From the sequence record PX393109.1: a stretch of 64,000 nucleotides of DNA; one strand, given 5' to 3'. Made by a program: the position numbers and the translations under genes. This DNA is from a phage. The notes beneath the pieces are model-generated. The model had not been told where the DNA came from. It saw only the letters and a list, made by a program, of their open reading frames with translations, and searched no databases. This document shows, one piece after another, positions 4,440 through 55,167 of this stretch (positions within the stretch are counted from its first letter, which is position 1; each line of letters begins with the position of its first letter).

Positions 4440-4998
4440 TTTCAGTATGCAGAGTCTTGAAGACTTTGTACCAGAGCATGGTAAGAGCGTAGTAGTCTTC
4501 TACCACGAGCGATTCTATTCCCGAGTAGAAATGCTACAGATGCAAGTAGAGTTCCACTACCAGATGATAGATGGCGATGGCTGCCCAGTTCCTCAGTGGG
4601 CATGCTATGATAATCGTGACGACATACCGTTCGATAAGCCATTCATCTGGAAAGATAAGCAGGTTAAGTTCCTTACTCTGGACGACTGTATGGAAATACA
4701 TAATCGTCATCCCAAGCACCACTATCGTTACTGGTGGGTTAAGGACTGGTTCCTAACTGGCGGAGGAAATAGCCAGTTAAATAGGGAACAGCTGGCGGAG
4801 ATGTCGTTAGGGATTATGAGTGCCGAACAGTTTAGTGCTGAGCTGGATAAGGGATGTGCTGATCTGGAAGCCAAGCGTATCTTACGTGAATTAACTCGTG
4901 AATCCCGTACTGGATATTGTGAGAAGCATGGCACTCGTCAGCTGGGTAAGGACCTATGTGATGTGTGCCGTATTGAACGTGCATTTATGGAGGGATGA
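4429..4998 (+). CDS. hypothetical protein
   Basis: ORF track 4420..4998 (GTG); first ATG at 4429. Confidence 0.45.
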   Translation: MPINFSMQSLEDFVPEHGKSVVVFYHERFYSRVEMLQMQVEFHYQMIDGDGCPVPQWACYDNRDDIPFDKPFIWKDKQVKFLTLDDCMEIHNRHPKHHYRYWWVKDWFLTGGGNSQLNREQLAEMSLGIMSAEQFSAELDKGCADLEAKRILRELTRESRTGYCEKHGTRQLGKDLCDVCRIERAFMEG

Positions 4999-5654
4999 TG
5001 CGGATCTGGACCGACAAGAACTCTATTCTGGAGTTTATCGGAGAGTACCGATTCCTATCTAACTTTTATCCTGTTCCTATTGAGGATAAGAATCCTTACG
5101 GGAACGAGACTCTTCCCTCCCTTACTTACCCTAGTGTGGAGCATGCCTATCAAGCATCTAAGTCTCCATCACTAGCCCATCGTCTTATCATAGCTAGACT
5201 TCATACTCCTGGTGAGGCCAAGAGATATGGACGTAAGCTGCCCATTACTGAATCGTGGAAGGAACAGAGAGTAGATGTGATGGAACACCTACTCCGGATT
5301 AAATTCGCGAAAGGTGGGGAGCTAGCTCAAAAATTGACCGATACTTGGCCTAAGGAGCTGGTCGAAGGAAATACCCACGGAGATTCCTTCTGGGGTATGA
5401 CTCGTGAGGAGTACAAGTCCGTCCTCACTGGTATTAATATGCTCGGACGATTACTGATGAAACTTCGGGAGGAGTTAGTTATGGAACAAATGACCAAGGA
5501 GACAGGATCGTTTGCGGAGTGGCATAAACTGCTGCACCAATACGCTCAGTCTCGTGGCGGTAGCGCTGCTGATGCGGAAGCCTGGCGGGATGATTACGAT
5601 GAAGGTAAGACCCCTAAGCAGGCCTACGACGATGAGTGGGGCGAAGAAGACTAA
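4995..5654 (+). CDS. NADAR / YbiA-like N-glycosidase domain protein (candidate ADP-ribosylation reversal enzyme)
   Basis: FLSNFYP...PSVEHAYQASK...ESWKEQRVDVMEHLLRIKF...LVEGNTHGDSFWG aligns by eye with E. coli YbiA motifs (FSNFAAWP...SEHYFQAQK...LVEHTENDAYWGDG); acidic C-terminal tail. Confidence 0.75.
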   Translation: MMRIWTDKNSILEFIGEYRFLSNFYPVPIEDKNPYGNETLPSLTYPSVEHAYQASKSPSLAHRLIIARLHTPGEAKRYGRKLPITESWKEQRVDVMEHLLRIKFAKGGELAQKLTDTWPKELVEGNTHGDSFWGMTREEYKSVLTGINMLGRLLMKLREELVMEQMTKETGSFAEWHKLLHQYAQSRGGSAADAEAWRDDYDEGKTPKQAYDDEWGEED

Positions 5655-6358: not shown

Positions 6359-7072
6359 ATGTCTACTAAGATGATGCCACACCATCTGGCTCCGAATAAA
6401 CTGTTTAACCGATTCCTGTCATATCACGACTCCTACCACTGCGCAATTGACATCGAGACCGAGTATCTCGATTTTAAAGAGCCTGGGGTAGTTCTATCTG
6501 TAGGTATGGTGACGGTTGGTCCTGATCACTACTCCCACGTCTACTTCACTATTGATCGAGAAGAGTCGCTGGCTCTGGGTATGAAGTCTGACCCTAACGT
6601 AGTTGAATGGCTCAACACTCTCCCGAAACCCGTCCGTGATGCTGCATATGCTAATCCAGTATCTGTTGACGAAGCTCTGGATATCATCGAAGAGTACGTA
6701 GCTAAGGTACTACAGGATCCTGGTTGCCAGATGTTGAACTTCATCGGTAACGCACCAGAGTTCGACCAGGGATTCCTGGATTGGTACTTTAAGGCTAAAG
6801 GACGTAAGACCCCGTTCCTACACTGGATGAATCGAGATTACCGCACTCTGGCTAGTCTGCAGCTGATCTCATTCGATGATCGTCGCATGATTAAAGAAGA
6901 ACTGAGTAGCCAGCACGAGTCTATGTCTGATCACCATGCATTGTTCGATGCGATGCTGGAAGCTAAGACTTGGGTTCGCACCATCAATCGTGTAAAAGAG
7001 TTACAGGATCTGGAGCACGAGGTGAATACCATGATTGCTATGCAGGGTAACTCTGTGGAAGATGGAGAGTAA
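6359..7072 (+). CDS. DEDDh-type 3'-5' exonuclease (DnaQ/RNase T-like)
   Basis: Exo I-like CAIDIETEY, later NAPEFDQGFL, C-terminal HHALFDAMLEA (H-x4-D motif III). Confidence 0.6.
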   Translation: MSTKMMPHHLAPNKLFNRFLSYHDSYHCAIDIETEYLDFKEPGVVLSVGMVTVGPDHYSHVYFTIDREESLALGMKSDPNVVEWLNTLPKPVRDAAYANPVSVDEALDIIEEYVAKVLQDPGCQMLNFIGNAPEFDQGFLDWYFKAKGRKTPFLHWMNRDYRTLASLQLISFDDRRMIKEELSSQHESMSDHHALFDAMLEAKTWVRTINRVKELQDLEHEVNTMIAMQGNSVEDGE

Positions 7073-7385
7073 GCTTTGTCGGGTGGTTAATATACGTACC
7101 AATCCTAACTACGATTTATATGTTGGGAGAGGTACTATATTCGGGAATAAGTGGAGCCATAAAGATTTACCTAACGCTATTAACGTAGGTTCCCGAACAT
7201 TAGCCATCGCGAAATACAGACTATGGTTCCACCAGCAAGTAAAAGATGGCCACATAAGCATCTCCTACTTACGGACTCTTAAGGGTAAGACTTTAGGGTG
7301 CTCCTGCTTACCGTTACCATGTCATGCTCAAGTTATAGCTGACTTCGTTAATTCATTACCTGACGAAGATTCCGCTCTTTCGTAG
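7062..7385 (+). CDS. DUF4326-like protein (CxC...PCH motif)
   Basis: YVGRG...GNKW...LGCSCLPLPCHAQVIADF resembles the DUF4326 signature; family assignment from memory. Confidence 0.4.
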   Translation: MESKLCRVVNIRTNPNYDLYVGRGTIFGNKWSHKDLPNAINVGSRTLAIAKYRLWFHQQVKDGHISISYLRTLKGKTLGCSCLPLPCHAQVIADFVNSLPDEDSALS

Positions 7386-7423: not shown

Positions 7424-7648
7424 ATGCAATCACGTCGTATTGGTTTGTTAAGCGGTATCGGTATGGTTCTGGCTGGATTAGGTCATATGTGGCCCACCCC
7501 AGCAGTGTCTGCTAAAGGCTATGACGGATTCCGTCGCGCCTGTACCAAGGTAAGCTGCCCTAAGACTACTACAGCATCTGCATTAAAGCGTGCGGCTAAG
7601 AAGGCTAAAGGCCGTAAGGTTAATAAGCAACGTCACAAGGGTAAATAA
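7424..7648 (+). CDS. small basic protein with N-terminal hydrophobic segment
   Basis: 74-aa ORF, GLLSGIGMVLAGLG then lysine-rich tail. Confidence 0.45.
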   Translation: MQSRRIGLLSGIGMVLAGLGHMWPTPAVSAKGYDGFRRACTKVSCPKTTTASALKRAAKKAKGRKVNKQRHKGK

Positions 7649-8028
7649 TGTCTCATATGACCCGAGAAGAAATCGTATTGATGGTGGCTAAGGTGTGTCA
7701 CGAAGCTAATCGTGCATACTGCCATTCTATCGGAGACTTCACCCAATTAAGCTGGGAAGCAACATCCGATGAAATAAAACAGTCGGCTATTGATGGAGCG
7801 TATAACTGCTTACACAATAACCGTATCAGCCCAGAAGAGTCCCATGAATTCTGGGTTAAAACTAAAAAGGAGCAGGGCTGGAAGTATGGAGAAATCAAAG
7901 ATCTCGCAGCTAAGACGCACCCGTGTATGGTTCCATATTCACGGTTGCCGGAAGAGCATCGAGTCAAAGATCACCTCTTCACCAGCATCTGCGCAGCATT
8001 CATTAAACAGTACAAAAGGGCATCATGA
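7648..8028 (+). CDS. RyR-domain protein
   Basis: [43 protein letters not shown] matches the RyR domain core (W..GW.YG......HP.LVPY..L). Confidence 0.55.
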
Positions 8029-8495
8029 TGACCGTAGTTCAAGTAAAGAAAACTATTAACTGGGACGACTCTCTGGAGTTACCGAAATACGCTAAAGCTG
8101 GTGATGCTGGTCTTGATCTTCGTGCGATGATTAAGACTGACGAAATCGATAAAATCGCTGTAAATCCTGGCGAAACTATCCTGGTCCCTACCGGTCTAGC
8201 GATCAACATCGGCGATCCGAACATCGCTTCTGTGATTCTTCCCCGCAGCGGCCTCGGCCATAAAAATGGCATCGTACTGGGTAACTTGGTTGGTCTTATC
8301 GACTCCGGCTATCAAGGAGAACTGATGGTGTCTGTGTGGAACCGTAGTAACGAATCTTTCGTTATTAACCACGGCGACCGTATCGCTCAAATGGTGTTTC
8401 TTCCCGTTATCCATCCAGAGCTCCAGCTTGTGGATAAATTCTCTGATGTTTCTGAACGTGGCGACGGTGGGTTTGGCCATTCCGGGATTAAGTAA
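8025..8495 (+). CDS. dut: dUTP diphosphatase
   Basis: [55 protein letters not shown]: all five dUTPase motifs in order. Confidence 0.85.
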
Positions 8496-8526
8496 TCCTG
8501 GGGTAGTTAGACTACGGTAATTACTA

Positions 8527-8550
8527 TTGACCTCTTTGCGGAGAGGTCAA
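8527..8550 (+). promoter_or_regulatory. perfect 9-bp inverted repeat (operator- or terminator-like hairpin)
   Basis: TTGACCTCT-TTGCGG-AGAGGTCAA between dut and the next gene; no T-run. Confidence 0.35.
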
Positions 8551-8577
8551 TGTTATTCTACCATAGAACCGAGGAAT

Positions 8578-8781
8578 ATGATGGATATTGAGCAACTAAC
8601 TAAGGATCTTAATCGTAACCAGATTACGGTTATTCGTTCGGAGCACTTAGCTCCCAAGACTATGATCGTGTCTGATGATATCTGGGGCACATTCAAGAAT
8701 AATAATAATAATAATAATAATAATGCTACTGTAGAAGCTACAGATGAAGAATCTGTTAAGAACATGCTGGAGCATCCGTAA
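8578..8781 (+). CDS. small protein with poly-Asn tract
   Basis: ORF track 8527..8781 (TTG start lies inside the hairpin); ATG at 8578 after GAGGAAT; 9 consecutive Asn encoded by (AAT)9. Confidence 0.45.
   Translation: MMDIEQLTKDLNRNQITVIRSEHLAPKTMIVSDDIWGTFKNNNNNNNNNATVEATDEESVKNMLEHP
8698..8724 (+). repeat. (AAT)9 trinucleotide microsatellite inside a CDS
   Basis: 27 nt of perfect AAT repeats, in frame. Confidence 0.9.
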
Positions 8782-9404
8782 TGATCCTTGGTAAATCTTA
8801 TATTGAGCAGGCAATTACTCAAGGATTATGGACCTATCACAGTTATCTGGACAATCAGGAACCACGAATCGGACAGAATAGTGTAGATGTACGCTTAGCT
8901 CCGTTCTTCCTGGTTCCTCAAAAGATGCCTGATGGCCATGTAGTAGATCCCTATAAACCATGTACTCTTCCGGAGTATCGCGAGGTAGAGGCACTATACT
9001 ACGATCTTAAACCTGGGGAGTTCATCTTAGGCTCAGCATCTGAACGTATCGACTGTACTACCATGTTGCCTGAGAAGTGGTTCGAGCATTATGACCCACG
9101 ATACCGTAACAGCACTGTAGACCGTGGTGTGGCATTCTGTCAGCATTACGACGGTCGCAGCACTATGGGTCGTCTGGGAATACTGAGCCATGTCAGTGCA
9201 GGTTTCGGGGACTTTGGATTCAAGGGAGCATTTACTCTAGAGATTGTTAACCTAAGCCCTAACACTATCCGACTGCGTTCTAACATGCGCATCGGTCAGA
9301 TTTACTTTACTGAGGTTGCTGGTGGTGGCTACGACCTTTACAAAGGTTACGACCAGACTGACTTTAAACCAGTCGCACCAATCATAGGTCGCGATCGTTT
9401 CTAA
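8781..9404 (+). CDS. dCTP deaminase-like protein (dUTPase superfamily)
   Basis: VDVRLAPFF, GSASERIDCT, RSTMGRLGI, GFGDFGFKGAFTLEIVN, MRIGQIYF resemble Dcd motifs; adjacent to dut. Confidence 0.55.
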   Translation: MILGKSYIEQAITQGLWTYHSYLDNQEPRIGQNSVDVRLAPFFLVPQKMPDGHVVDPYKPCTLPEYREVEALYYDLKPGEFILGSASERIDCTTMLPEKWFEHYDPRYRNSTVDRGVAFCQHYDGRSTMGRLGILSHVSAGFGDFGFKGAFTLEIVNLSPNTIRLRSNMRIGQIYFTEVAGGGYDLYKGYDQTDFKPVAPIIGRDRF

Positions 9405-9825: not shown

Positions 9826-10188
9826 ATGACTTCTGCCGATTGCGTAGCTATGGTCGTCTACTATGAGGCCAGGGGAGAGTCGGAACGTGGGCAGTTAGCT
9901 GTAGCCCACGTGGTACTCAACCGAGCGAAGAAATACGGTATAAGCCCATGTAAGGTAGTTAAAAACAGGAATACCTTTCCGTGGTACCGTCACATCTCTT
10001 ACCAGAATATGAAAGATCCTAAATCTAAGGCATCTGCTATTCATATTGCGGCAAGAGTTAAATACAGTGAAGATCCCACATTCGGGGCTACTCACTTTCA
10101 TAATGTAAAGGTTAGGCCTAACTGGAAGGGCTATAGAATGACAGCCAGAATAGGCGACCACAAGTTCTATAAGAAGGTAAAGAAATGA
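9826..10188 (+). CDS. SleB/CwlJ-like cell-wall hydrolase domain protein
   Basis: YYEARGESERGQLAVAHVVLNR is the hallmark N-terminal motif of the Hydrolase_2 (SleB) family. Confidence 0.55.
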   Translation: MTSADCVAMVVYYEARGESERGQLAVAHVVLNRAKKYGISPCKVVKNRNTFPWYRHISYQNMKDPKSKASAIHIAARVKYSEDPTFGATHFHNVKVRPNWKGYRMTARIGDHKFYKKVKK

Positions 10189-50092: not shown

Positions 50093-51919
50093 TTAGCCAC
50101 CCACTCGTTGCTTAATAATGTTCCGAAACATCTCCTTCGCATCCCTAGACTTATTAAGTTCGTGGAGTGCAACTTGAAGATCTTCAACCGTGGCAGTAGA
50201 CCCTATCTTATGGATATTCTCTTTAACTGACCACTGAGATCCGCAGACAGCATCCGCGATATCTTTACTCCCCGACGGAGGGTGGTCGAACTTACCTTCT
50301 CCTTCCTCCAACTCTTTAAGCTCCTTGATCAGTTTAGGTACAGCAGGAATAGTGCTGCGACCTTCGAGAATCGAGTTTCTTAAGTAGTTATACGGGTCTT
50401 TAGTCCGGTCTACAGATAGCAGAGCAGTCTCGAACCCAGCCAGAGTTAAATCCTGACGTAAGTTCGTGGATTGGTATCCATCTGTGGTTACCATTTTAAT
50501 TGGGTAACCTTGCTGAGATGCTTCTATTAAGAAGTTCTTAATCTTGTAGATAGGGACTTCCTGACCAGGCTGGCAGGTAATTTCTAATGCCCACTCAGTA
50601 ACAATCTTAGGTTCACGAGTAACCATGCGAGTACTGGTCAGAGGATCATAGGTCTCTTGGTCTACATAACCATCGAGATAAGAACAGGCTATACCAGTTG
50701 AGTCGTTCTTAAGACCCAAGTCAATATGGATGAACCGATCCTTCTTATTAAGGAAGGCAAGTCTGGGGACATCTATAGTCTGGTGAAGAGTCTGCTCCTT
50801 ATCGAAGAAGTCCAGAACTACCACGTTAGATTCAGTAGGGTTAATGTGGTCAGCTGCTCGGTTAAGCACCTCGTAGGACGAGATGAACGACCATGTACCG
50901 AATGTAGACACACCAGCAAGATCCCTGAGAGACTTAACAATGTTAGTCTCGAATTCCTGTCTATGTTCAACAGGTACAGAGATAATACGAGATGGCTCCA
51001 GACCGTCTTTAATCTTGAGAGTATTCTCATCAAAGATAAACGGATCTCGATACTGGTCACCAGCATAGACGTAGAACATTTCCCCAGAATACCCTCCGAG
51101 GTGCCATTTAGCTTCCCAGTGGGCATATCTGAATAACAGATAGTCGTTAATTCCTTTCTTGGCTTTATCCTCTAGACGAACATCGATAAAGGAACGGTTT
51201 CCCTTATTCGAAGAGTCTAGAATCAAGTGGCCAATCATCTCTACCCCTTTACCCCCGAAACGAGAGTTCATACGAGTATAGATGGTGTCGAAGTTATCTT
51301 CTGCCTGACCATGAACTACGGTCATGTCGTTTATCTCTGAGAAGATAGCACCTACGGTAGCCTGCCCCAGAGCATCCTGACCACGAGAACCGAATCCTAA
51401 GTCCACATTCTTAATGAACAAAGTACGAGGATTCTTACCACCAGTCATCTTACCTTTGAAGAATGGACTGTTCTCTATCCACTCGATGATCTCTGCGTAG
51501 AGTACATCGTAGGATAGACCTTTAGTGGCGTTCATCAACATCCAACGAATTACTGTGGATGGCAGAAGTTTAAAATGAGCGCGAGGATCTCTAAGACATA
51601 GCAATTTGCACAGGTCGTAGAGAGTGATAATCTTAGCAGCAGTTGACTTACCCAGACCGATACCACCAGTTAGATAAATCTCTACAGCTGGTGAAGTGTA
51701 AGGAGTAGGGTAAATCTTAGCTAGAGCATCCATCCATATAGGATAGACCGAGCAGACACCGTCAGCATCTACCAGAGACTTACCCAGGTAGTACGGATCC
51801 ATTATGAAATCCTGGATCGTCGGAACCCGCTCCTCGTAGCCACTCATCAACGCTAACTGATGCATAGCTTCGAGTCTAGAGCCACATGCTTCAATAAACT
51901 CATCTAATGCATCAGTCAT
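50093..51919 (-). CDS. terminase large subunit
   Basis: Walker A LTGGIGLGKSTAAK near N-terminus, 608 aa, first large gene of late operon. Confidence 0.8.
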   Translation of the reverse strand: MTDALDEFIEACGSRLEAMHQLALMSGYEERVPTIQDFIMDPYYLGKSLVDADGVCSVYPIWMDALAKIYPTPYTSPAVEIYLTGGIGLGKSTAAKIITLYDLCKLLCLRDPRAHFKLLPSTVIRWMLMNATKGLSYDVLYAEIIEWIENSPFFKGKMTGGKNPRTLFIKNVDLGFGSRGQDALGQATVGAIFSEINDMTVVHGQAEDNFDTIYTRMNSRFGGKGVEMIGHLILDSSNKGNRSFIDVRLEDKAKKGINDYLLFRYAHWEAKWHLGGYSGEMFYVYAGDQYRDPFIFDENTLKIKDGLEPSRIISVPVEHRQEFETNIVKSLRDLAGVSTFGTWSFISSYEVLNRAADHINPTESNVVVLDFFDKEQTLHQTIDVPRLAFLNKKDRFIHIDLGLKNDSTGIACSYLDGYVDQETYDPLTSTRMVTREPKIVTEWALEITCQPGQEVPIYKIKNFLIEASQQGYPIKMVTTDGYQSTNLRQDLTLAGFETALLSVDRTKDPYNYLRNSILEGRSTIPAVPKLIKELKELEEGEGKFDHPPSGSKDIADAVCGSQWSVKENIHKIGSTATVEDLQVALHELNKSRDAKEMFRNIIKQRVGG

Positions 51920-51922
51920 GGT

Positions 51923-52453
51923 TTACCCCTTAGGACCAATGCCTTCCGCCAATTGCTTAATCAAGTTATTGGCGATAGTAGACATATCTTTACGATCCTT
52001 AGGAGACTGACCTTCATTGGCAGTCTCTATGGCGGAAGCCAGACTCAGCAGAGATACTTCGATAGCTGTCCAGTTAATCGAACCAATGGTCGATTTAACG
52101 AATGCTGCCGACTGAGATGCACTAGCTAATGCCAGTTGATATCTCTCGATCTGCTCCTTCTCGGTGAGTCTGTCCAGACGCTCAGGATCAAAGATTTTCT
52201 TTTCGAGGATCTCGATAATCCCGTTAAGCTTGGCTACTCGGTTAGCCTCAGACTCAGCCAGACCTAGCTGGAGAATCTGTAAGCCTATCTCTTTACCTTG
52301 TAGGGCTTTGACGTTAACGGATTCAGAACCCTCCGAATTAACTAAGGAAAGACCCTTTTGAATAGTACTTAAGTTTTGCTTAGCTAACTCGCCCATTGTA
52401 TTTCTCCTGTTTATAGTTGAAGACGTCCCGGACGGGGCTCGGACAACCTTCAC
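51923..52453 (-). CDS. hypothetical protein (small terminase candidate by position)
   Basis: 176-aa ORF directly upstream of the large terminase. Confidence 0.3.
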   Translation of the reverse strand: MKVVRAPSGTSSTINRRNTMGELAKQNLSTIQKGLSLVNSEGSESVNVKALQGKEIGLQILQLGLAESEANRVAKLNGIIEILEKKIFDPERLDRLTEKEQIERYQLALASASQSAAFVKSTIGSINWTAIEVSLLSLASAIETANEGQSPKDRKDMSTIANNLIKQLAEGIGPKG

Positions 52454-52540
52454 AAAAACACCCTTTTGAGGCCTATCTTTAGAGCGCAGGGGCGTCCTGT
52501 AAAGCTCAAAAACCTAATTTTAACACTCTTTTTGAATAAA

Positions 52541-52584
52541 AACCGCTCTTTTGTAAGGTCCAAAGGCTGTTAAACCGTTGGAGG
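52541..52584 (+). promoter_or_regulatory. conserved intergenic motif copy 5
   Basis: AACCGCTCTTTTGTAAGGTCCAAAGGCTGTTAAACCGTTGGAGG; ends in the RBS of the 52593 gene. Confidence 0.5.
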
Positions 52585-52592
52585 AATCAAAT

Positions 52593-52934
52593 ATGAAAAC
52601 TGCTGATATCATTACGTTCCTGGGTAACCTATCTTCCCTATATAATAAGGTAGGAGACAATCGTCGTGCTGGGTCATTCGCGAGAGCATCCCAGTCTATT
52701 CAACTTCACGTTAAGATCCCCGAAGTTAAGGATTTGTCGCAACTCGGCAAGTTACCTAACGTCGGCGGGTCGACCATCAACGAATTAATCGAGATGGATA
52801 CTAAAGGGACTACCGATCGTATGGAGTCCCTGAAGAAACAGCTCGAAGAAGATGGTCCGCAGGATACTTCTGCTAAACTGGCTAACGCATTGGCTTTAGT
52901 TAAGGCTAAGCAGGCCAAGATAGAGAAGAAGTAA
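52593..52934 (+). CDS. hypothetical protein
   Basis: ORF track 52578..52934; ATG at 52593 with GGAGG RBS 8 nt upstream; motif copy just upstream. Confidence 0.5.
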   Translation: MKTADIITFLGNLSSLYNKVGDNRRAGSFARASQSIQLHVKIPEVKDLSQLGKLPNVGGSTINELIEMDTKGTTDRMESLKKQLEEDGPQDTSAKLANALALVKAKQAKIEKK

Positions 52935-53428
52935 TGTTTATGTTCGTCACTGGTCATAGGCCAGATAAACTGGGTGGCTGGGATATCTTTAGCCATGATC
53001 AGCTTACCCAGTTTGCCGAACATCATATCCAGAGGTTGACCGAAGAAAATAAGGTCGACTGCTGGTTCGTGGGTATGGCTTTAGGATGGGACATGGCATG
53101 TGCTCAAGCATGTGCTAACCTCGGAATACCATATTTCGCAGCAGTCCCTATGATTGACCAGCCCAAGATGTGGCGATCTGCAGATGTAGAAAAATGGACT
53201 GAGCTCTGCAGGAGAAGTCGTCGCACAATTATAGTTTCCGAGCCTGGGTATGATTCTTTCAAGATGATGGTGCGTAACCGTTACATGGTTAACCGTAGTC
53301 AGAAGGGATTAGCCTTATGGGATGGCAGCAAGGGTGGTACAGGTAACTGTGTAACCCATGCTAAATCTCTGGGTAAGGAAGTAATTAATGTATGGGAAGA
53401 TTATGTCAAAATCACAGGATCTCCTTAA
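52934..53428 (+). CDS. SLOG-superfamily protein, YpsA/DUF1273-like
   Basis: VTGHRPDKLGGWDIF / FVGMALGWDMACAQAC / AVPMIDQPKMW / LALWDGSKGGTGN parallel the B. subtilis YpsA blocks (recalled from memory). Confidence 0.5.
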   Translation: MFMFVTGHRPDKLGGWDIFSHDQLTQFAEHHIQRLTEENKVDCWFVGMALGWDMACAQACANLGIPYFAAVPMIDQPKMWRSADVEKWTELCRRSRRTIIVSEPGYDSFKMMVRNRYMVNRSQKGLALWDGSKGGTGNCVTHAKSLGKEVINVWEDYVKITGSP

Positions 53429-53723
53429 TGCTGTTGGTGATGTCGATGAAGGAATATTCGTCAAAACCATAGCAGCTGGTTTAACCGATGATCAGTTACT
53501 GATGATAGCTTCGTCTAATGTTGATGATGTTACTGATGAGGAAGGTATTGCTATTTCCGAATCAGCTAACAGAATCAAGCGTAGGGCTAAAGCTGCCGGA
53601 CGACTCCTTAAAAATAAGGCTAAGTCCAAGACTTTACATAAGAAAGTTAAAGCTCATGTTAAGTCGGCTGCTAAGAAAGCTGCTATCAACGGTACTAAAC
53701 ATCTTGTCAAAATGTTCTTATGA
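53388..53723 (+). CDS. hypothetical protein with basic C-terminus
   Basis: 111-aa ORF; alternative ATG at 53403. Confidence 0.45.
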   Translation: MYGKIMSKSQDLLNAVGDVDEGIFVKTIAAGLTDDQLLMIASSNVDDVTDEEGIAISESANRIKRRAKAAGRLLKNKAKSKTLHKKVKAHVKSAAKKAAINGTKHLVKMFL

Positions 53724-53730
53724 GGAAACT

Positions 53731-53886
53731 ATGAGCAAATCTGCTGAAGAGTTGGACTTCAATAATATTCCTTCTCAGGAAGAACTCGACGAAGCATCTA
53801 AGCGTGTCGAAGATCGCATGGTTAACGTAGACGAAGTTATCAGCCAGCCTGGTGACGACGACTGCGGGGACGCATGTAAGATTTAA
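53731..53886 (+). CDS. small acidic protein (51 aa)
   Basis: ATG 53731 with GAGG RBS; stop immediately before motif copy 53887. Confidence 0.4.
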   Translation: MSKSAEELDFNNIPSQEELDEASKRVEDRMVNVDEVISQPGDDDCGDACKI

Positions 53887-53930
53887 AACCGCTCTTTTGT
53901 ACCGTCGAAAGGCTGTTAAAGTGTCGGAGG
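53887..53930 (+). promoter_or_regulatory. conserved intergenic motif copy 6
   Basis: AACCGCTCTTTTGTACCGTCGAAAGGCTGTTAAAGTGTCGGAGG. Confidence 0.5.
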
Positions 53931-54005
53931 TGGTTACCTCCGATGCTTACTCTAAATCTTTTACGAGAGACTTAAAGTAAGCAAACCACGTTAGGAGTAA
54001 TTATA

Positions 54006-54548
54006 GTGAATATTTTCCGTACTCACGAAGATGCGTTAGAATGTGCTATGGACCATTGTATGCCAATGCACCAGAATAAAATGATTATCGAATGTGCTCA
54101 GCTGTTGTCCACAGCTCATCATGTTCTGGATGGCGATCAAGCTATCGAGGGTATTTACAAACAGACTCACGTAAATCACCCATCAGCACGCTGGGTCCGT
54201 GAATCTTCCGGTAACTACAACTTCGTTAAAGAGCTGGCTAACTATCTGTGTATCCTGTTCTATGAACGTACCGGTCGTATGCATGCCACAGATATTATTC
54301 TGTCGCGACTCAGCAAACTGCCTAAGAACTTGAAGGTCGGTCCGGAGACTGACATGACACCTTATGCGTGTGTGGCAGGTGCTCCTGGCGAAACAGTTTA
54401 CGAGAAGTATCGTAACTACCTGAACGATAAATACTATATCTGGGAGAAAGAGGGTCGTACCATTACTTTCTACCGCACTCCCGAATGGTATAAACCCGCT
54501 CTTTTTACAGTTCCAAAGGCTGTTAAAGTGTCTGAGGCGAGCGTCTAA
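54006..54548 (+). CDS. hypothetical protein
   Basis: 180-aa ORF; its last ~15 codons read through a copy of the conserved intergenic motif. Confidence 0.5.
   Translation: MNIFRTHEDALECAMDHCMPMHQNKMIIECAQLLSTAHHVLDGDQAIEGIYKQTHVNHPSARWVRESSGNYNFVKELANYLCILFYERTGRMHATDIILSRLSKLPKNLKVGPETDMTPYACVAGAPGETVYEKYRNYLNDKYYIWEKEGRTITFYRTPEWYKPALFTVPKAVKVSEASV
54495..54537 (+). promoter_or_regulatory. conserved intergenic motif copy 7 (inside 3' end of a CDS)
   Basis: CCCGCTCTTTTTACAGTTCCAAAGGCTGTTAAAGTGTCTGAGG. Confidence 0.45.
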
Positions 54549-54552
54549 TTAC

Positions 54553-54595
54553 GCCGCTCTTTTGTACGGTCGAAAGGCTGTTAAAGTGTTCGAAG
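54553..54595 (+). promoter_or_regulatory. conserved intergenic motif copy 8
   Basis: GCCGCTCTTTTGTACGGTCGAAAGGCTGTTAAAGTGTTCGAAG. Confidence 0.5.
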
Positions 54596-54682
54596 TGCCA
54601 ATTCCGGCTTATCTAACTAAGAAGGTATATCGTATGTAACGGTTAATCACTTAGAGAAGAAGATAAAACTTAGGAATCGTTT

Positions 54683-54726
54683 CGCTCCCTATTTCCCATC
54701 ATCACAGTGCTCGGTGATAGGGAGCG
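54683..54726 (+). promoter_or_regulatory. long imperfect hairpin
   Basis: CGCTCCCTAT...ATAGGGAGCG 10-bp outer stem with inner ATCAC/GTGAT stem. Confidence 0.4.
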
Positions 54727-54735
54727 GGCAACTTA

Positions 54736-54773
54736 ACACTCTTTTGATGACTCGAAAGGCTGTTAAATTGTCA
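54736..54773 (+). promoter_or_regulatory. conserved intergenic motif copy 9
   Basis: ACACTCTTTTGATGACTCGAAAGGCTGTTAAATTGTCA; a terminator lies ~25 nt downstream. Confidence 0.45.
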
Positions 54774-54797
54774 TAAGTTGTTCATGGGATCCGTGGG

Positions 54798-54827
54798 ACC
54801 GACTGCTAGCGTACCAGTCGGTTTTTC
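54798..54827 (+). terminator. rho-independent terminator
   Basis: ACCGACTG/CAGTCGGT stem, 9-nt loop, followed by TTTTT. Confidence 0.65.
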
Positions 54828-55167
54828 GGTGGTCTGCAGTGCTTGAGTCTGTAAGGTATGAGTGGGACTCAAATTAAAAATAAACTAAACCGTATCAGCT
54901 GTCGGGACTCCTTACCCAGAGACAGTCGTATCCGAGGCCATACGAGAATGGCAAAGTAGGAAGCTATATGGGACTATCAATCCCGGATTTGGCGTATGGC
55001 TCTTCCTACCTCCTCAGGACAGGTTGACTGAGGGCTACAAGCCTATGTGATACCAGCCAATGGCGTTACGCGGTTGGCGAGATCGGCTTAATCGCCGATT
55101 GGTAATCTGGCGCGACGAACGGCGTCCCTGTAACAGTAAGCAGGATAATATTTCTCAGGAGAGTACG

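Follow-up and report, generated by a model that had tools for sequence, protein, structure and literature searches.

What is a 164-residue relative of Bacillus subtilis YpsA doing in the genome of a phage? The question is raised by one gene on the + strand of a 64,000-nucleotide stretch of phage DNA (sequence record PX393109.1; the whole stretch is here called the window). A reading made from the sequence alone, referred to below as the sequence-only reading, had noted four blocks aligning with YpsA, had assigned the product to the SLOG superfamily and had suggested, among other roles, the manipulation of host cell division. The gene is the following:

52934-53428, + strand: SLOG gene, an ATG…TAA open reading frame (ORF) of 164 codons, encoding a SLOG domain protein of the YpsA/YoqJ clade of 164 amino acids (aa)

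The YpsA-like SLOG identity was borne out at the level of profile, alignment and fold. A SLOG/DUF1273 profile match was indeed found, Pfam family PF06908 (YpsA SLOG family) scoring 29.5 bits (E 8.5e-7, residues 4–141), only just higher than its gathering cut-off of 27.7 bits; the DprA family PF02481 reached 16.4 bits, under its cut-off of 29.6. In PHROGs the protein was assigned to phrog_289 ("GTP-binding domain", E 1.9e-13), and searches of NCBIfam and of PADLOC, ShosA models included, returned no match. Among PDB sequences, B. subtilis YpsA (2NX2) was the top match of the single sequence (E 0.02), rising to E 5.2e-12 when a 37-sequence family profile was used, and the four blocks noted there are present in the alignments. 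The AlphaFold2 model obtained from the family alignment (predicted local distance difference test, pLDDT, 95.4; predicted template modelling score, pTM, 0.91) shows a SLOG-type Rossmannoid fold, the nearest crystal structure being again YpsA 2NX2 (Foldseek E 1.4e-10, template modelling score 0.82). We are thus close to certain that the product is a YpsA-family member of the phage YoqJ-type clade, with a SLOG (Rossmannoid) domain standing alone. To a specialist this comes as no surprise, the protein being an ordinary addition to a large phage family that has already been described.

The extent of this clade is evident from the homologues, more than 1000 of which were retrieved at E ≤ 1e-3 from a metagenome protein collection. 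Of the 120 that were listed, all but a few stand alone, measure about 150–190 aa and have PF06908 as a precomputed assignment, and many of the metagenome homologues bear the JGI label "uncharacterized phage-like protein YoqJ". By tblastn, homologues were found in 220 phage records, including phages of Streptomyces, Erwinia, Bacillus, Microbacterium, Dickeya, Klebsiella and others, under labels as different as "GTP-binding domain", "DprA-like DNA processing chain A" (the annotation of the actinophage members of the clade), "ssDNA binding protein", "MCP/YpsA-like" and "DUF4326 and YspA-like SLOG domain protein". In the SPbeta-like phage phi3Ts the homologue (tblastn E 1e-10) is flanked by those of YoqG and YoqK and so occupies the position of YoqJ. 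The window protein shares with the SPbeta YoqJ/PHROG 289 clade its size (about 155–165 aa), a sequence identity of 40–48% with hundreds of proteins from phages and metagenomes, and every residue that is invariant in the clade. It differs, together with its closest relatives, in a "DCW" insertion before strand 2, in a rarer D-Q-P after strand 3 where most members have G-Q-E, and in the adjacency of its gene to a gene for an HHH_8 protein, described below.

Residue conservation was counted in an alignment of 121 sequences. T6, G7, H8, R9, G47, G51, D53, P72, W80, G135 and T136 are invariant, and K12, M48, A49, Q76, R114, N115, N138 and C139 are at least 94% conserved, all of them being present in the window protein. 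The clade signature T-G-H-R-P...G-M-A-x-G-W-D...P...Q...W...R-N...G-G-T-x-N-C is therefore complete, the D-Q-P after strand 3 being the sole departure from the clade pattern. Proline at position 77 occurs in six sequences, the window protein included, and since all six have Asp or Glu two residues before it, the acidic group beside Q76 is kept by a correlated swap (G-Q-E against D/E-Q-P). Judged from these alignments, the pocket of the window SLOG protein is intact and under strong constraint. The ratio of nonsynonymous to synonymous substitution rates (dN/dS) is 0.15 for the gene when compared with its orthologue in Escherichia phage vB_EcoM_IME392. This phage and Escherichia phage EP_H11 are the nearest to the window, with about 90% nucleotide identity; in IME392 (MH719082, 5618-6483) both the HHH_8 and the SLOG ORFs are intact and neither is annotated in GenBank, and in EP_H11 the SLOG gene is labelled "hypothetical". 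A literature search on IME392 gave nothing useful on its lifestyle.

What could such a pocket be for? Of the type usual in this superfamily, it would be built from G-H-R in the loop that follows strand 1, G-W-D where helix 2 begins and the acidic-Gln pair after strand 3, and completed by the M-x-x-R-N helix and the G-G-T-x-N-C phosphate loop. The ligand might be a base linked to ribose-phosphate, for example AMP, ADP-ribose or one of its derivatives, cyclic or linear, of which the protein would either cleave the N-glycosidic bond or sequester the whole molecule. The use would be counter-defence, early or midway in infection, by eliminating a nucleotide-derived product of host immunity or weakening its effect. 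We give a probability of roughly 45% to this reading, namely that the SLOG protein binds an AMP- or ADP-ribose-type ligand and hydrolyses or sequesters it as counter-defence. The location of the gene in an accessory island (see below) and the presence in the same phage of genes for NADAR and DUF4326 proteins argue for a counter-defence role.

The viral YpsA-like SLOGs were surveyed in 2022 by Iyer, Burroughs and Aravind (PMC9503650), who reported a network of SLOG, Macro, NADAR, DUF4326 and Nudix domains, put the share of phages with SLOG domains at 19% for medium and 31% for jumbo phages, and predicted that the viral YpsA-like SLOGs bind ADP-ribose derivatives of host immunity or cleave their N-glycosidic bonds. 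The window protein belongs to the same clade, DUF4326 is fused or adjacent to SLOG in its relatives, and NADAR and DUF4326 are both encoded in the window; unlike in that survey, the window SLOG is neither fused nor adjacent to either of them, lying 46 kb away. The NADAR and DUF4326 genes lie in one cluster, and a small nucleotide-metabolism cluster and a cell-wall hydrolase gene come after it:

4995-5654, + strand: NADAR protein (PF08719, E 7.9e-27, 94.9 bits)
6359-7072: Rv2179c-like 3'-5' exoribonuclease, between the NADAR and DUF4326 genes
7035-7385, + strand: DUF4326 protein (PF14216, E 2.5e-17, 63.7 bits), in the same cluster as the NADAR gene
7648-8028, + strand: RyR domain protein, in a small nucleotide-metabolism cluster (7648-9404)
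8025-8495, + strand: dUTPase, in the same small cluster
8781-9404, + strand: dCTP-deaminase-like protein, in the same small cluster
9826-10188: Hydrolase_2 cell-wall hydrolase

The phage NADAR AdfN was shown experimentally to reverse the DNA ADP-ribosylation made by DarT1, thus acting against DarTG1 (PMC11257639), and by analogy the NADAR gene of the window is likely an anti-DarTG1 gene. As to the SLOG homologues themselves, their contexts were counted in 80 IMG/VR loci. The neighbours belong mostly to replication and nucleotide metabolism (helicases, PolA, primase, metallophosphatase, ribonucleotide reductase, single-stranded DNA-binding protein, C5-methylase), and no single neighbour is conserved across the relatives, the biggest neighbour cluster being found at 10 of the 80 loci. 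The one recurrent specific association is DUF4326, the domain that in other phages is most often found fused or adjacent to SLOGs of the YoqJ type: it lies directly beside SLOG at 4 of the 80 loci, at 7 more it is no further than about 3 kb away, and DUF4326-SLOG fusions occur in the relative L053 and in Myxococcus phage Mx1.

A further point of comparison is ORF83, the one SLOG protein whose anti-defence role has experimental support, directed against type III Avs (Avs3) and described in a preprint (EVADES, 10.1101/2025.06.06.658234), with a predicted AMP pocket R89-N90...T112-x-D114 and with DUF4326-fused viral homologues. ORF83 is likewise a small stand-alone SLOG, which carries the annotation Smf/DprA and is taken in the preprint to be encoded by a phage, and the R114-N115...T136-x-N138 of the window protein has the same spacing to within one residue, the two proteins being compared by motif only. 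They differ in that the best PDB matches of ORF83 are of the LOG type (5WQ3, 1WEK) and not YpsA. From the LOG phosphoribohydrolases themselves (PF03641) the window protein is set apart by the lack of the catalytic Glu of PGGxGTxxE, the position being occupied by Cys139. No similarity was found to the SLOG domain of ThsA, the cyclic ADP-ribose sensor type of the Thoeris system, or to defence-system models.

The sequence-only reading had placed the gene as the first substantial one of the + strand block next to the terminase. It turned out to be the second, behind a shorter gene, and the terminase, though nearby, is separated from the block by an ORF on the opposite strand:

50093-51919: large terminase
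51923-52453, - strand: 176-aa ORF between the large terminase and the divergent intergenic region
52593-52934, + strand: HHH_8 gene of 113 aa, a stand-alone helix-hairpin-helix protein of the Pol X 8-kDa type, with a Shine-Dalgarno sequence GGAGG at 52580

A scan of 52300-56700 for sigma-70 promoters and terminators returned fewer sites than shuffled sequences did, and none in the divergent intergenic region. The own match of the 113-aa protein to HHH_8 (PF14716) is weak (E 2.6e-4, 21.7 bits against a cut-off of 30), and a search of PDB sequences with its profile gave nothing, so that the fold search and remote HMMER searches were needed. Its model has a pLDDT of 85 overall and above 90 over residues 1–80, and all of the top 50 Foldseek matches in the PDB are the N-terminal 8-kDa domains of DNA polymerases beta and lambda, at about 2 Å root-mean-square deviation. 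An exhaustive HMMER search retrieved 63 relatives, of which roughly one half stand alone and are about 110 aa long; all ten remote relatives tested give an HHH_8 match (nine above the cut-off), true PolX-PHP polymerases being among them, and "DNA polymerase family X" genes of Rhizobium phages were matched by tblastn. Fold and homology are accordingly those of the five-helix Pol X 8-kDa domain, but the lyase Lys is lacking. In human Pol beta K72 is the nucleophile of the deoxyribose phosphate lyase; in the alignment it corresponds to E64 of the window protein, and K68 to S60, for which reason we read the protein as probably a non-catalytic binder of DNA ends or backbone. Its dN/dS is 0.11. As a side observation, the stand-alone family of about 110 aa (relatives L085-L093) is conserved, in this phage lineage as well as in Acinetobacter phage Ab1-TPeters, at the head of the genes that run divergently from the terminase.

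The TAA stop codon of the HHH_8 gene overlaps the ATG of the SLOG gene as TAATG, and for this reason a functional pair was first suspected, in the form of a split DprA-like protein with the layout of a SAM plus a Rossmann domain. As a conserved pairing it was rejected. By blastp, an HHH_8 homologue was found near the SLOG gene at none of the 80 IMG/VR loci, and in the more distant relatives the HHH_8 gene is followed by a gene other than SLOG. Indeed, HHH_8 genes at the same position, as first + gene divergent from the large terminase, occur in Ab1-TPeters and in several metagenomic contigs, and in these distant relatives the next gene, often overlapping, encodes a different protein of about 165–180 aa; a search of the genes downstream of HHH_8 in the distant relatives with the SLOG hidden Markov model gave no match. 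SLOG directly follows HHH_8 only in the close clade, formed by IME392, EP_H11 and contig L086. In the window a homologue of the gene that follows HHH_8 elsewhere is found about 5.5 kb further on:

52934-58456, + strand: accessory island of about 5.5 kb in which the SLOG gene comes first, bounded by the HHH_8 gene and the gene at 58457-58996
58457-58996, + strand: 179-aa protein, homologue of the gene after HHH_8 in distant relatives, at the right edge of the island
58999-60639: ResIII helicase, directly downstream of 58457-58996

The 179-aa protein matches by blastp those of contig L087 (E 3e-12), Ab1-TPeters (8e-10) and contigs L089 (1e-5) and L091 (9e-5), and gave no match in Pfam and PHROG searches. 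Since the HHH_8 relatives without SLOG have its homologue in the place of SLOG, the latter appears to open an accessory island, and an island of about 5.5 kb inserted between the members of an older gene pair is the simplest reading of these comparisons. The TAATG overlap is then best read as an accident of the island insertion and not as the sign of a two-protein machine, and the HHH_8 gene is, as far as the compared genomes tell, a conserved feature of the lineage that has no specific link to the SLOG gene. The island has no compositional signature, its guanine-plus-cytosine (GC) content being 0.42–0.50 throughout, and composition thus gave no sign of recent transfer.

Against this background three other roles have to be weighed. 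DprA/Smf and the DprA-like antitoxin ShosA are the second-closest folds to the window protein, and they have in common with it a G-x-A-x-G-x-D motif and a helix motif made of a hydrophobic residue followed by x-x-R-N. The signatures of single-stranded DNA binding in DprA are G-S/T/A-R and F/L/Y-x-x-R-N/D (PMC3950713), and variants of both can be recognised in the window protein, G-H-R being placed by its position in the strand-1 loop only and M-x-x-R-N being aligned by HMMER to F-V-R-R-N of ShosA. This ranking of folds, the motifs and the location of the gene in its module would suit a minimal DprA-like binder of single-stranded DNA, in which the pocket would grip a flipped-out base, with a role in recombinase loading or in the protection of replication intermediates, possibly together with the HHH_8 protein, the pair mimicking the SAM-plus-Rossmann arrangement of DprA. 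However, YpsA has Lys versions of both signatures, so that G-H-R and M-x-x-R-N would mark a shared base-binding pocket and not DNA binding itself; the window protein lacks the SAM and DML1 domains and is half as long as DprA, whose loop reads G-S/T/A-R and not G-H-R; and membership of the YpsA family and the non-conserved pairing with the helix-hairpin-helix protein weaken the proposal further, so that we consider it unlikely, while keeping it in serious consideration. The likeness to ShosA invites another proposal, that of an orphan antitoxin mimic, which would replace the SLOG/DprA-like antitoxin of host phosphoribosyltransferase-SLOG systems such as ShosTA; host shut-off would then fail to free the effect of the toxin. 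Searches of the PDB with the sequence profile and with Foldseek both rank ShosA (8ZVA/9VZO) second, the ShosTA defence system of E. coli has a DprA-like SLOG as its labile antitoxin (PMC11961720, PMC12961424), members of the YpsA family are found in conflict systems together with phosphoribosyltransferases (PMC6459960), and the NADAR AdfN offers a precedent for an orphan antitoxin-like enzyme in a phage (PMC11257639). Yet only the Rossmann core aligns (about residues 165–275 of the 318 of ShosA), whereas ShosA needs dimerisation, single-stranded DNA binding and RecA binding (PMC11961720, PMC12961424); the ShosA models of PADLOC do not match, and the family occurs in phages of Actinobacteria, Bacillus, Erwinia and Myxococcus, far outside the known ShosTA hosts. 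This makes the mimic highly improbable.

The role in host cell division suggested by the sequence-only reading did not hold up as well as the identity on which it was built. It would have the protein block the assembly of the FtsZ ring, as overexpressed YpsA does in B. subtilis and Staphylococcus aureus, and in its favour the Pfam family is the same, the nearest fold is that of YpsA, and phages are known to target cell division (PMC6459960). Identity to YpsA (2NX2, PF06908, of the "YpsA proper" clade) is 16–17%. The GxD/E motif of YpsA (G53/E55, reading G-V-E) corresponds to G51-W52-D53, with the conserved acidic residue that starts helix 2 in the predicted nucleotide pocket, and W87 of YpsA to W80; both features are required for filamentation by YpsA, and both are conserved. 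G42, E44, W45 and W87 and the GxD/E motif are each needed for that filamentation (PMC6459960); G42, E44 and W45 have no conserved counterpart in the window protein, a point that the YpsA authors made for YoqJ too (PMC6459960). Other differences are the aromatic residue of the first loop, which is Tyr in YpsA and His in the window protein (the clade-invariant H8, aromatic as well but chemically unlike Tyr/Phe), Lys in YpsA at the positions of R9 and R114, and W57 replaced by A55, W57 being dispensable in YpsA. The linkage of ypsA with gpsB does not extend beyond a single Firmicute branch of the family (PMC6459960), while the window gene is phage-encoded and has a Gram-negative host, E. coli; no gpsB-like gene was found beside it, its neighbours being the HHH_8 gene and small ORFs. 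Because of the unmatched G42, E44 and W45 and of the restricted gpsB linkage, a cell-division role retains only the slightest chance. The probability left over belongs to functions outside these three proposals and the AMP- or ADP-ribose-ligand counter-defence reading, which we prefer.

The counter-defence reading also admits a bolder and more specific form, which joins the DprA-like features to the ADP-ribose context. The SLOG protein would be an N-glycosidase acting on nucleic-acid-linked or free adducts of the ADP-ribose type, with a DprA-like base-flipping pocket that would let it work directly on DNA, the HHH_8 protein perhaps bringing it to nicks or gaps, and would be one arm of a NADAR/DUF4326/SLOG toolkit erasing ADP-ribose-based immunity of the host, for instance DNA ADP-ribosylation of the DarT type, TIR signals or Avs3-linked damage. 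We regard this version as decidedly improbable; if true, the phage would carry a three-part toolkit (NADAR, DUF4326, SLOG) against the ADP-ribose-based immunity of its host.

The remainder of the island consists mostly of small ORFs and two tRNA genes, and beyond it the ResIII helicase is followed by a DnaB-like helicase and RusA:

53388-53723, + strand: 111-aa ORF that has 41 nt in common with the 3' end of the SLOG gene
54006-54548, + strand: 180-aa protein of PHROG 624, "DNA binding protein", no Pfam match
55360-55563, + strand: 67-aa CxxC zinc-ribbon ORF, PHROG 6060 "anti-termination protein Q-like" (E 1.6e-18)
55541-55617: tRNA-Arg(TCT)
55763-55838: tRNA-Met(CAT)
further ORFs of 263, 123 and 103 aa

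The 111-aa ORF, with a weak and probably spurious PHROG match to "head-tail adaptor" (E 0.0023), is also called in contig L086, and IME392 has a different ORF of 68 aa in its place. Homologues of the PHROG 624 protein were found in 227 phage records, a few being labelled "putative endonuclease V". The 3' end of the zinc-ribbon ORF overlaps the start of tRNA-Arg by about 23 nt. An Rfam search of 54400-56800 found nothing beyond the two tRNAs; about 800 nt at 55840-56630, with a slightly raised GC content (about 0.49), contain no ORF longer than 52 aa, match nothing in Rfam, and are unannotated in EP_H11 too.

Of the accessory genes of medium and large phages that still lack an explanation, those for SLOG proteins of the YpsA/YoqJ type are some of the commoner ones. 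What is new here is a member of the family from an E. coli phage, unannotated in the closest relative, with a very confident model and clear invariant pocket residues. No current view is changed by it. Its value, beside the side observation of a lineage-conserved stand-alone gene for a Pol X 8-kDa domain, is that of a tractable test case: with NADAR and DUF4326 encoded in the same phage, the window phage would be a convenient system in which to address the role in ADP-ribose counter-defence that has been predicted for this family.
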